From a virus (lineage: Duplodnaviria; Heunggongvirae; Uroviricota; Caudoviricetes), in IMG/VR virus record IMGVR_UViG_2537562192_000006: 4,423 nucleotides of DNA. The stretch is one strand, 5' to 3'. Position numbers: made by a program. Of this stretch, positions 1 to 3,000 are shown piece after piece (positions within the stretch are counted from its first letter, which is position 1; the number at the start of each line of letters is the position of its first letter).

Positions 1-3000
1 GAGAAAAGCCGTAAACGTGCAGATGCAGGTATTGCAGGAGCAATGGCGATGACTGCCATTCCTGTTGTTGAGGGTAAAACGTACTCCTTTGGTATGGCTG
101 CAAGTAACTACCGTGATGAGCAGGCTATCGCAGCAGGTATGCACTTCCGCACCACTGAAAATTCTGCTGTACGTTTGAATGCTTCATGGGATACCCAGAA
201 CGGTTCAGGTGTTGCTGCGGGTATGTCTGTCGGCTGGTAATTTATTTTTTGCGGAGAACGCCAGCCGTGTTGGTTATCGGAAGCGTTCTCCGTCATCCTT
301 CTGTCGCTGAAGACACAGCACAGTCACATTGTTCTTTTTTGTGGTGAGAGTGTGAGTGAAAAAATTCTCCGGTATATGCAGCGTGTGGTGAGAAATTCCC
401 GCAACCCTGAATTTATGAATGAAGTTAAAGACGCCTGCTTTAAAAAGCAGGCGTTTTGTTTTGAGGCACCTGATGGCTTTCTGGTGCTGCGTTCTGTGCT
501 CAGTGCTGATGGTATCCCTTATGTTCTGGTGTTGCTGGGCGTGTGTACGGGGAGTAACAGTGTTGAGCGTTATCTGCCGGAGGTGAAGACATTAACCCGT
601 CTGGCTGGCGGACGTTGGGCTGAATTTCATACGGCAAGGCGGGGATTTATCCGGCTGGGAAAACGTCTGGGCTTTGAGCGAATGCCGGATGATGAGGATG
701 GCTTCATGGTGTTCAGGATAGCGGTCTGACTGCCACAGTTTTCATCATCGTGTTTAAACCAACATTGCAATTCACATTCTGACCCTGCTCCGGCAGGGTT
801 TTTTTATTATCCAGGGGGCCATTATGGGTGGAAGTAAAGGTGGTGGTGATACCAAAGTAAAACCAACAGCAGCGCAAATAGCACAGGAAGAAGTGGCCTG
901 GAAAGGGTGGCAGGATTACAAAAATATCCTCCGCCCGGCTGAAGATAACTTCATGGAAAAGGTCGATGACCTGAACAGTGAGCAGCAGTACGACAATATT
1001 GCTGGCACCACAAATCTGGGGTATCAAAAACAGTTTGGCGAAGCGCGGAAGGAGCTGGCAAGTAATCTCACTCGGTCCGGTGTTGACCCGTCCAGTGGTC
1101 GCTTTAACGCGGTAATGAATGCGAACCAGAGTGATCAGGTAACCGGGCAGATTGACACAACCACACGGGGGCAGGTATCGCAGGCAGATAAGTATGTTGC
1201 CGGGCTACAGGATGTTGCTGCTCTCGGTTCTGGTCAGAAGGCGGATGCGTTACAGAGTTTTAACTCTCTGGCAGACAGCAGTCTGGCAAAAGCTAAATCG
1301 GATGCACAGGCGGCGTTTACGAAACAGCAGGGGCGAGCCTCTCTTGTTGGCGCTGGTCTGGGTGCGGCAGGTGCGTACGCGATGCATAAGGCTGGCGGTA
1401 GCGGAGGAAGTGGCGGTGCTAAAACACCTGGCACTGGCGCTAATGCCATTCAGCATCAGGCTCAGAACTGGAGACTGTGATTATGGAGTACGGTAAATAC
1501 GAAACACTTGCGAGATACGGTTATACCGGAGCAGCCCGCCCTCAGGGGGACTGGCAGACATCCGCAGCGCTGACCCGCCAGCAATACGACGACTGGCGCA
1601 CCAGATATTTACCCCGTGTAGCAAGGCTGGCTGACCTTGGGGAGAACAACAGTCTGATGAATCCACAGCTTGCACGGGTGGGAGGCCTTGCCACTTCCAG
1701 TCTCCGTACAGCGCAGATGGCGCAGGATAACCAGATGGCGAGATACGGGGTAAGCCGCCCGGATAATCCCGACAGTAATACGCTGGGGTTACGTAATGCC
1801 CTGGCAATAGCAGGTGCGAAAAATGGTATCCGTGAAGCCGAACAGGATCGCCAGATGAATATTCTGACGGGGGCTTCTGCACCGGCAAGACAGAAACTGA
1901 GTGTTGGCGGACAACTGGTGGCAGCGTAAGGGGGCAATATGGGATACGGTTTACTGGATATTGCAAATCAGTCGCGGCGTGAGGCATTACAGGGAATAAG
2001 TGACGCAGACAGACGACGCACAGAGATTGAGGCATCAAATAAACAACTGGCTGCTCAACAGAAAGCTCAGAAAAAACAGAATATCAGTACGGGCATTGGT
2101 ACGGGGGCGGCTATTGGTGCATCCGTTGGTGGTCCTGTTGGTGCTGTTGCTGGTGCAGTAATTGGCGGCATTGCAGGCGCTTTGTTTTAAGGAGTGGTGA
2201 ATGAGCGGATTTGCACAGGGGTTACTTGCCGGATTCAGCACTGTTGACCAGGCAATGACCCGTCGTAAGGAGCTTGGTTTGCGAGAAGCACAGCTTGCTC
2301 AGCAACAGAAAAATAACGAGCGCGATTTTGAATTTGCGCAGTCTCAGTTTGAACATAATAAAGACGTTGATCAGCGGAACTTTGATTACAGAGCCAAAGT
2401 TGATGACCGCAATTACACACTGCAGGAAAGGGAGTTTAACGCCAACCAGAATTACCGGAATGCGTCGCTGGGGATGGAACAGCAACGACTCCAGTTGCAG
2501 AAATACAACCAGCGACGGCTTGAGTATAACGATATGCTGGCGCGCGATCAGCCTGTGATGGCGGCGCTGGGAAAAGCGATTGATGCGGGTGACCATGATG
2601 CGGCTTCTCATCTGTTCGGTAAATTATCGGACGCCAATCCGCTTAAGATGATGTCAACGGTAGGCTATGCTGCGAAAGCGGGTCAGGCCGTGAACAACCT
2701 GCAGAAAATCTTTGATGATAAGCCGGACAGGGCGATTGCTTCGCTGAATACCCCGGAAAATCTCGATGTGTTTTCCGGCGTGTTTGCCCCGGAACTACAA
2801 CAGCGTATTGGCATGCCTGATTCAACCGGGGAAAAGACAATAAAAGAGGCCAGGATTGGCAGTATCGTACCGGCGCAGCAGGAAGGGTACGTACTTATTG
2901 GCCTTGATCTCACATACAGCGATGGCTCCACTGCGCATAAACCTGTAACAGAATATGGCAGTGCGCACCCTGATGATCAAAACGTGCTGGCGATACCCGT

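Follow-up and report, generated by a model that had tools for sequence, protein, structure and literature searches.

Putative Rho-independent terminators beside tail and giant-protein genes in the distal late operon of a Stx-type prophage

The best-described relatives of the locus examined here are the Q-controlled late operons of lambdoid phages (lambda, 21 and 82, and the Stx phages 933W and H-19B). They resemble it in that q, pR'/tR', stx and the genes for lysis and morphogenesis lie on one strand, intrinsic terminators stand in the way of the late transcript, and expression comes only after induction. The terminator studied in those systems is tR', beside pR', whereas those of the present locus lie 26–29 kb downstream, among tail and ejection-protein genes; literature searches found no description of terminators 26–29 kb downstream of pR'. 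Lambdoid late operons may also carry morons, inserted cassettes of promoter, gene and terminator such as lom, bor and hok, a concept due to Hendrix and Juhala. An internal terminator that sets gene dosage within a phage late region is exemplified by T-phi of T7, located after the major capsid gene. Finally, terminators embedded in coding sequence can be masked by translating ribosomes.

The window (the whole stretch of DNA analysed, 4,423 nucleotides) is 99.7% identical to an E. coli prophage and 91–97% identical to the late region of short-tailed Stx phages. Judged by these matches, it is that end of a short-tailed Stx prophage which encodes the tail and ejection proteins, and the prophage is kin to 933W, Sp5, phi24B and P13374. 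In both P13374 and 933W the co-oriented order is q, stx2, lysis, terminase, head, tail and then the window operon, with q ~26 kb upstream of the locus, all structural genes in between on the + strand, and terminators present between q and stx2A. The q gene, itself outside the window, is in these two phages a member of Pfam Phage_antitermQ (E=1.5e-51). The late unit as a whole spans roughly 37 kb and contains about a dozen terminators, and the window block forms its distal part.

All genes of the window are on the + strand. It opens with the 3' end of a YadA-like adhesin gene (1–240; Pfam YadA_anchor, E=7.6e-11, and the RefSeq annotation of the 99.7% identical prophage), a variable insert of moron-type cargo upstream of the conserved block; in most Stx phages, homology to the window starts only at ~343 (query position of the phage matches). 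A consensus scan around the insert in the closest genome gave no promoter for it. The conserved block begins with a small ORF (376–729; PHROG 610, function unknown, E=1e-68), corresponding to vb_24B_43 of phi24B, ORF73 of P13374 and ORF75 of Sp5. It is followed by a gene for a 218-aa protein (SD AGGGGG at 813–818, ATG at 824, end at 1480), which is vb_24B_44 and, by gene order, Sp5 ORF76. Three tightly packed genes (1483–3463) then encode a 148-aa protein (1483–1929), an 83-aa glycine-zipper 'bacteriocin' (1939–2190) and a 420-aa protein (2201–3463; Sp5 ORF79/ECs1241). The remainder is the 5' part of the gene for a giant LPD5/LPD38 'polyvalent' virion protein (SD GGAG at 3539–3542, ATG at 3548, to 4423), which in Sp5 is ORF80/ECs1242 (2793 aa, 8.4 kb). 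Relative to intact copies, its frame is broken in the window by two 1-nt insertions, near 4079 and 4095. An Sp5 deltaORF76 mutant lysogenises poorly, while ORF79/ECs1241 and ORF80/ECs1242 are both essential for tail formation (PMC5155283), which means that lytic growth requires expression of the operon.

Two of the gene starts are immediately preceded by a hairpin with a run of seven T. Hairpin 1 (781–805, + strand) has the stem 781–788/793–800, the loop 789–792 and the T run 799–805; positions 781–800 read GACCCTGC-TCCG-GCAGGGTT and form a GC-rich stem of 8 bp with a 4-nt loop (dG −14.5 kcal/mol). A spacer of 7 nt separates its T run from the SD of the 218-aa gene; the coordinates and the spacing are those that the preliminary description had given for a terminator upstream of this RBS, as confirmed by sequence, scan and folds. 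The same arrangement, claimed to recur at 3509–3550, is indeed found there. Hairpin 2 (3509–3535, + strand), directly 5' of the giant gene, consists of the stem-loop 3509–3528, GCCCGAC-CATCGT-GTCGGGC (7-bp stem, 6-nt loop, dG −12.4 kcal/mol), and a T run at 3529–3535 that ends 3 nt before the SD. Both hairpins are called as + strand terminator-like sites by a consensus scan, and both are the MFE structure in folds of 61 nt, which leave the SDs unpaired; their minus-strand versions have non-T sequence after the stem. They combine the features of intrinsic terminators: a GC-rich stem with a short loop, a 3' T run, and a structure under selection. Under a strict definition (≥7 pairs, dG ≤ −12, T-rich tail), the window holds three + strand terminators, against a mean of 0.023 and a maximum of 1 in 300 dinucleotide shuffles.

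In hairpin 2, all positions of the stem are paired in each of 10 distinct sequences (100%), compared with only 29–43% for controls slid by 1–3 columns. Its three stem variants are all fully paired and include two compensatory pairs and one wobble pair, the interchanges being A-U/G-C and G-C/G-U/A-U. Hairpin 1 shows no covariation except G-U to A-U at the closing pair. Across 46 IMG/VR loci its stem is free of substitutions, against variation in 14 of the 51 upstream intergenic columns, and it is retained in E. coli E7-1N7 and in Citrobacter despite unrelated upstream DNA; in Citrobacter the stem is unchanged though the downstream protein is just 55% identical. That the hairpins are chance inverted repeats without function has practically no likelihood, as it is already refuted by the excess over shuffled windows, the compensatory changes in hairpin 2 and the cross-genus conservation of hairpin 1 amid unrelated flanks; the modest z-scores of the 61-nt folds (−1.29 for hairpin 1 and −2.23 for hairpin 2), and nothing else, speak for it.

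More distant relatives were reached by protein search, since the one-genome-per-species scan matched only a fragment of 333 nt. A terminator beside the SD of the giant gene occurs in at least nine further lineages (Salmonella, Citrobacter, Pectobacterium, Serratia, Dickeya, Paramixta, two of Aeromonas, and Vibrio), and it keeps its place beside the giant gene where insertions have added other genes upstream. The hairpin sequences at this position are unrelated between lineages, with at least five unrelated ones. Hairpin 1 is found in lineages with hok-type inserts upstream (E. coli and Citrobacter, and in degenerate form in Salmonella), a pattern based on only two to three lineages, and is missing where the small ORF abuts the 218-aa gene.

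Hairpin 1 lies 51 nt past the stop codon of the small ORF, as would be expected if it were the end of an independent upstream moron cassette. In that case a separate, unrecognised promoter would serve the 218-aa operon; it might, for instance, require a phage activator and so be missed by a sigma70 consensus scan. This reading is highly improbable. The small ORF and its syntenic counterpart in Aeromonas phage phiARM81mr share 42% identity, and the synteny is seen in 10 further lineages. In relatives from Yersinia, Pectobacterium, Serratia, Dickeya, Paramixta, Aeromonas and Vibrio, the gap to the 218-aa gene is only 7–10 nt. In each of the 12 lineages examined both genes occur, side by side, so that neither shows the patchy presence of a moron, and a moron made of the small ORF and hairpin 1 is ruled out by synteny in distant relatives. 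In E. coli E7-1N7 a phd/doc cassette has come to lie between the small ORF and hairpin 1, and the hairpin remains with the 218-aa gene; moreover, the distance from the T run to the ATG is only 18 nt, and no start site for the operon is among those listed for EDL933 (see below). The resemblance to morons concerns the surroundings, in that the window begins in the YadA-like insert, 933W has lom and hok with constitutive start sites just upstream, and terminators keep such transcription local; unlike moron terminators, hairpins 1 and 2 flank ancestral virion genes, outside any insert. The preliminary description erred in taking the 218-aa gene as the first of its operon, as the small ORF is its ancestral upstream neighbour and the block is the distal part of the late unit.

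The remaining strict terminator lies within the small ORF, ~18 codons past its start. This + strand palindrome (429–464, hairpin 429–456) reads AGACGCCTGCTT-TAAA-AAGCAGGCGTTT followed by TGTTTTG (dG −17.9), and, downstream of the variable inserts, no strong + strand terminator precedes it. It occurs at homologous codons in E. coli, Salmonella, Citrobacter, Yersinia, Pectobacterium, Serratia, Dickeya and two Aeromonas lineages. In the columns of this element the codon identity reaches 0.84, vs 0.41 over the remainder of the small ORF (p about 2e-5), and A. hydrophila has pair changes on both sides of the stem. It resembles the ribosome-masked terminators of coding sequences in being a perfect terminator within an ORF, but differs from them in its conservation across genera and its suppressed synonymous change, which point to selection for structure and not to tolerated noise. 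A scan of the window against Rfam (E≤1) gave no known RNA family, just three sub-threshold matches, all at the 429–456 hairpin region.

Promoter-like motifs are depleted in three scans (0 vs 3.9 in the window, and 13 vs 19.4 and 9 vs 17.2). No sigma70-like site was found in the whole window, against 3.9 ± 2.1 expected, and the best scores near the two junctions, on a rough PWM that gives lacUV5 14.5, are 6.1 and 4.6 bits, under the shuffle means of 7.4 and 7.1. In the 933W lysogen EDL933, Cappable-seq under eight uninduced conditions has no canonical TSS for the five operon genes (RS06990–RS07010) among those listed; the sole TSS listed within these genes is weak and internal (1381377) and appears in one condition. 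Nor is any TSS of these uninduced cells listed in the stretch matching window positions 730–823, which includes 806–823, where a start site would speak against transcription from further upstream. The hok locus has strong + strand TSSs at 1378994–1379237, several of them in all eight conditions, located 600–840 nt upstream of the start of the 218-aa gene.

The comparison with and without prophage induction that had been proposed is available for phi24B, where RNA-seq after norfloxacin (dataset PRJEB9491) shows the operon genes up 5.6–8.3 fold: vb_24B_44 by 8.3 fold (P=0.039), vb_24B_45 by 7.0 (P=0.047), vb_24B_47 by 7.3 (P=0.059) and vb_24B_48 by 5.6 (P=0.31). The lom gene, just upstream of the operon in this phage, changes by 3.0 fold, which is not significant. 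The earlier proposals that no convincing sigma70 promoter accompanies hairpin 1, and that the operon is read through from an upstream promoter or silent in the lysogen, are in good agreement with the co-oriented late genes, the lack of a promoter motif and of a listed TSS, and the induction. Hairpins 1 and 2 are thus probably functional Rho-independent terminators that lie inside, rather than at the start of, a single long late unit of a lambdoid short-tailed Stx-type prophage, and through which Q carries the polymerase. Both termination and read-through are predictions from sequence, and the read-through by Q is most likely the textbook arrangement, with no new mechanism.

In the lysogen, Q-free RNA polymerase would start at weak internal promoters or at the constitutive promoters of cargo genes (hok, lom, YadA-like), and would be halted at the three successive + strand terminators (429–464, 781–805 and 3509–3535); this would keep the genes for tail and ejection proteins silent, and most of all the 8.4-kb giant gene. 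Upon induction, polymerase loaded with Q at pR', ~26 kb upstream, would ignore these three terminators, as well as roughly nine earlier ones, and then transcribe the operon. Hairpins 1 and 2 are not special in this respect, because 933W has 12 + strand terminator-like sites (dG ≤ −10) from Q to the end of the giant gene, of which 11 are intergenic. Some of these sites, among them those following the portal and major capsid genes, have essential genes downstream, so that the phage is obliged to read through them. In an Aeromonas phage, the gene at the position of Q has no Pfam Q match.

Instead of being fully overridden, the hairpins might act as graded attenuators in lytic growth, each stopping some polymerases, even Q-modified ones, so that the yield of distal low-copy proteins, and of the giant protein in particular, falls below that of head proteins. 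The retention of a terminator by the giant gene SD across genera, with at least five unrelated hairpin sequences, fits this. So does the stepwise decrease of induction in phi24B as one moves along the late genes (S 134x, portal 30x, vb_24B_40/41 15x, vb_24B_44 to _48 from 8 to 6x), which could reflect incomplete read-through, with terminators also active in lytic growth. These values come from pooled samples at a single time point and are relative to differing basal levels; the gradient could equally arise from transcription time over 37 kb or from RNA decay, and the step across hairpin 2 is small (7.3 for vb_24B_47 to 5.6 for vb_24B_48). Polymerase modified by Q of lambda, 82 or 21 is highly resistant to terminators across tens of kb, which also counts against attenuation, and this reading appears unlikely. 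The parallel with T-phi consists in the terminator right after the major capsid gene in 933W and P13374 and in the conserved position before the gene of a giant low-copy protein. T7 RNA polymerase, however, acts without a Q-type modification, and as the polymerase here is expected to be terminator-resistant, a role in dosage is conjectural.

A further suggestion would be that the hairpins serve mainly as RNA punctuation, protecting 3' and 5' ends after processing of the 37-kb transcript, with the U run by the SD as a landing site for the ribosome (S1). At four 933W junctions (major capsid gene/next gene, the following gene pair, small ORF/218-aa gene, and 420-aa gene/giant gene) the stem ends 18–23 nt before the next start codon, and the SD is unpaired in the folds. 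Adjacency is not universal, however: the gap is as wide as 117 nt after the portal gene and 191 nt after lom, and a Vibrio phage has about 85 nt. The T run is always kept, though a stabiliser hairpin would not need one, and the tight fit against the SD is accounted for, with no extra function, by intergenic gaps (94 and 84 nt) that hold little else. Punctuation as the main role is therefore improbable.

With termination and read-through by Q as the preferred reading, a more far-reaching one can be put forward tentatively: the three + strand terminators could form a conserved 'gate' that makes the ejection-protein module, above all the giant protein, strictly dependent on processive antitermination. 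They would then be selected components of late control, for lysogen protection, dosage or both, and not incidental gene-end signals. Two parts of such a gate, the terminator in the small ORF and that beside the giant gene SD, may predate the Stx phages. Most late genes of the medically important Stx phages are uncharacterised. Conserved terminators before the tail and giant-protein genes would explain the silence of these genes in the lysogen despite nearby constitutive promoters of the hok/lom type, and predict that Q is required for their expression as it is for toxin production. The wider point is the positionally conserved terminator of a giant gene across genera, together with a coding-embedded terminator under synonymous constraint, a modest, testable contribution to the understanding of how costly virion genes are insulated in temperate phages.

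The giant gene and an N4-like capsid recall the hairpin promoters used by the virion RNA polymerase of N4-type phages, but these are ruled out by the T runs and by the domains of the giant protein (LPD5/LPD1/MuF_C/LPD38). The sRNA HnrS was set aside, as its paper deals with other prophages. The micro-size RNA 24B_1 of phi24B is encoded on the minus strand between lom and vb_24B_43 (PMC4426718); going by map position and not by sequence, it is most likely absent from the window, where this stretch is replaced by the YadA-like insert. Term-seq and dRNA-seq datasets exist for strain Sakai (Sy et al. 2020, PMC7547250). Start-codon calls that annotators had placed inside the hairpins are corrected by the gene map given here.

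Phage records matching the 4423-nt window number 186; almost all are Stx-converting phages, at 91–97% identity. Among 5426 complete E. coli genomes, 424 carry matching prophages, with 99.7% identity in the best case. Judged by its annotated relatives (P13374, phi24B, and 933W in EDL933), which are short-tailed Stx phages (Sepvirinae), the window occupies the distal end of their late region. Upstream of this module, the gene order shows tail fibre genes and then variable cargo (lom, hok, YadA-like). All genes of the module are on the + strand: a small ORF (376–729, vb_24B_43 in phi24B), a 218-aa gene (824–1480, vb_24B_44), a 148-aa gene (1483–1929, vb_24B_45), a gene for an 83-aa glycine-zipper protein (1939–2190, vb_24B_46), a 420-aa gene (2201–3463, vb_24B_47) and, from 3548, the gene for a giant LPD5/LPD38 protein of about 2793 aa (vb_24B_48). 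In the related phage Sp5, tail formation requires the 420-aa and giant proteins, and deletion of ORF76, which by gene order would be the 218-aa gene, lowers lysogenisation (PMC5155283). Relative to the intact giant genes of 933W and the 99.7% identical prophage of E. coli 2018-166, the frame in the window is broken by two single-base insertions (about 4079 and about 4095), creating a TAG at 4097–4099; either the prophage is decaying or the insertions are sequencing errors.

Two hairpins with canonical terminator anatomy lie directly before genes of the module, exactly where the preliminary description had placed them. Hairpin 1 (781–800, + strand; T run at 799–805) precedes the ribosome-binding site (SD, 813–818) and ATG (824) of the 218-aa gene, and hairpin 2 (3509–3528, + strand; T run at 3529–3535) precedes those of the giant gene (SD at 3539–3542, ATG at 3548). 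A third terminator-like palindrome, stronger still, occurs within the small ORF (429–456, + strand, followed by TGTTTTG). These are the three strong + strand terminators of the window, compared with 0.023 per dinucleotide shuffle. The earlier statement that no convincing promoter is present also holds: a consensus scan gave no sigma70-like motif in the whole window (3.9 expected), and both junctions scored below the shuffle mean with a rough promoter PWM. The loop CATCGT of hairpin 2 (3516–3521) recurs in the terminator after the portal gene of P13374 (7375–7380 of that locus) on a different stem, and may reflect shared origin or chance.

In P13374 and 933W the gene order is q, stx2, lysis genes, terminase, portal, head, tail and the window's operon, with all structural genes after q on one strand. 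The q gene belongs to Pfam Phage_antitermQ (E=1.5e-51), and lies about 26 kb from hairpin 1. In 933W the stretch from Q through the giant gene carries 12 + strand terminator-like sites (dG <= -10), 11 of them intergenic, including those 3' of the portal gene, the major capsid gene and the gene following it; hairpins 1 and 2 are ordinary members of this type of series. Since essential genes lie behind terminators in a region depleted of promoter motifs, virions need read-through by the late polymerase. At four junctions of the series the stem ends 18–23 nt 5' of the next start codon, so that a terminator set against the SD is the usual compact junction of the phage rather than a peculiarity of one gene. 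Some starts are annotated or called inside terminator hairpins, namely those of the giant gene (23154 in the P13374 locus, 7759 in that of Salmonella) and of P13374 ORF62 (10219). The true starts are the SD-preceded ATGs 15–35 nt downstream, and the database proteins therefore carry spurious N-terminal extensions.

Synteny of the module extends to prophages of Salmonella, Citrobacter, Yersinia, Pectobacterium, Serratia, Dickeya, Paramixta and Aeromonas, to Aeromonas phage phiARM81mr and to a set of Vibrio phages, with the order 541-aa protein, tail tip fibre, small ORF, 218-aa gene, two small genes, a gene of about 450 aa, and giant gene. A terminator is found near the start of the giant gene in every lineage with a readable junction (that of Yersinia is unclear), and these belong to at least five unrelated sequence types: three stem variants of hairpin 2 in E. 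coli, GAGCCTGC-TTAT-GCAGGCTT in Salmonella and Citrobacter, AAGCCTCGC...GCGGGGCTT in Pectobacterium, Serratia, Dickeya and Paramixta, two different hairpins in Aeromonas, and one further hairpin in Vibrio. Where genes have been inserted after the roughly 450-aa gene (Serratia, Paramixta, A. hydrophila), the terminator remains on the giant-gene side, a geometry that would need no special function if the DNA upstream of the hairpin offered a larger target for insertions. One Pectobacterium prophage has an identical hairpin (AAGCCTCGCC..GCGGGGCTT, with a T run following) twice, before the 541-aa virion protein gene (604–629) and before the giant gene (8089–8114), and Dickeya has near-identical copies at corresponding places (1764–1787, 8699–8723); the terminator was apparently duplicated as a module.

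Among the relatives compared, hairpin 1 is confined to Escherichia, Citrobacter and, in decayed form, Salmonella. In most distant relatives the small ORF stops 7–10 nt before the 218-aa gene, which makes hairpin 1 a later addition and does not fit the earlier designation of the 218-aa gene as first of the operon. A hok-type insert lies upstream of hairpin 1 in E. coli and Citrobacter. The stem has no substitutions in 46 viral contigs, compared with 14 variable columns of 51 in the upstream intergenic DNA. It is kept base for base in E. coli E7-1N7 despite a divergent phd/doc cassette upstream, and in Citrobacter, with unrelated DNA upstream and only 55% identity in the protein encoded downstream. 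In Salmonella it has decayed to 4 bp, and the same gap has two other strong terminators. The three stems of hairpin 2 (GCCCGAC/GTCGGGC, GCCCGGC/GCCGGGT, ACCCGGT/GCCGGGT) are paired in 70/70 cells, with two pairs altered on both sides and one via wobble, compared with 29–43% for controls slid by 1–3 columns. This conservation points to selection on the hairpins, which under a rival reading would act in RNA stability or translation.

The terminator-like palindrome inside the small ORF (429–464 with its T-rich tail) is perfect and encodes the motif A-C-x-K-K-Q-A-F-C-F. It is present at homologous codons in 9 of 12 lineages examined; a Vibrio phage has a weak, shifted hairpin in its place, and Paramixta has lost it. 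Codon identity is 0.84 at the terminator vs 0.41 elsewhere in the gene (p about 2e-5), with synonymous change strongly suppressed. In A. hydrophila pairs have changed on both sides, and in Yersinia a frameshift falls in the loop, leaving the hairpin intact. Upstream, 3' of the YadA-like stop, the window has a 10-bp inverted repeat (251–291, + strand; GCGGAGAACG...CGTTCTCCGT, loop of about 20 nt) without a T run. As this is not a canonical terminator, transcripts of the YadA-like insert may well continue to that at 429–464.

Published Cappable-seq of EDL933 (NZ_CP008957; 8 conditions, all uninduced) lists + strand start sites in the hok locus at 1378994, 1379067, 1379091, 1379103, 1379129, 1379181, 1379219 and 1379237, several of them found in all conditions (PMC10469882), which implies constitutive transcription in the lysogen 600–840 nt upstream of the 218-aa gene start. 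The canonical table passes from RS06985, the small ORF, directly to RS07025 (PMC10469882). A start site at 806–823 had been named beforehand as evidence against read-through; the tables for these uninduced cells list none at the junctions (1379700–1379899 and 1382200–1382599; PMC10469882). The sole + strand start within the operon (1381377) is weak, seen in one condition, and inside the 420-aa gene (PMC10469882). It corresponds to about 2366 in the window, just 3' of CATAAT (2354–2359) and adjoining one of the three best PWM hits (2328–2366 region), and no terminator other than hairpin 2 separates it from the giant gene.

With norfloxacin, phi24B genes vb_24B_44, _45, _47 and _48 rise 8.3, 7.0, 7.3 and 5.6 fold, and neighbouring lom 3.0 fold (not significant); induction declines along the late genes (S 134 fold, vb_24B_40/41 15 fold; PMC4651098 SI Table 4). 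The hairpins could alternatively be dosage attenuators in lytic growth. The best-supported account is the one first proposed, that of intrinsic terminators at which unmodified polymerase would stop and which Q-modified polymerase would override; we infer both the termination events and their dependence on Q. The benefit would most likely lie in the lysogen, where transcripts from promoters of cargo genes and from cryptic promoters would be kept out of the genes for the tail and the giant protein. This mechanism is the textbook lambdoid one. The literature searched gave no descriptions of these sites, and the small additions are a positionally conserved terminator before the giant gene and one embedded in the small ORF under codon constraint.

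Antisense start sites were also published for EDL933 (PMC10469882): one inside the 148-aa gene (1380775, about 1764 in the window, - strand) in 7 of 8 uninduced conditions, and several weaker ones in the giant gene; such antisense RNA would lie opposite the silent operon.
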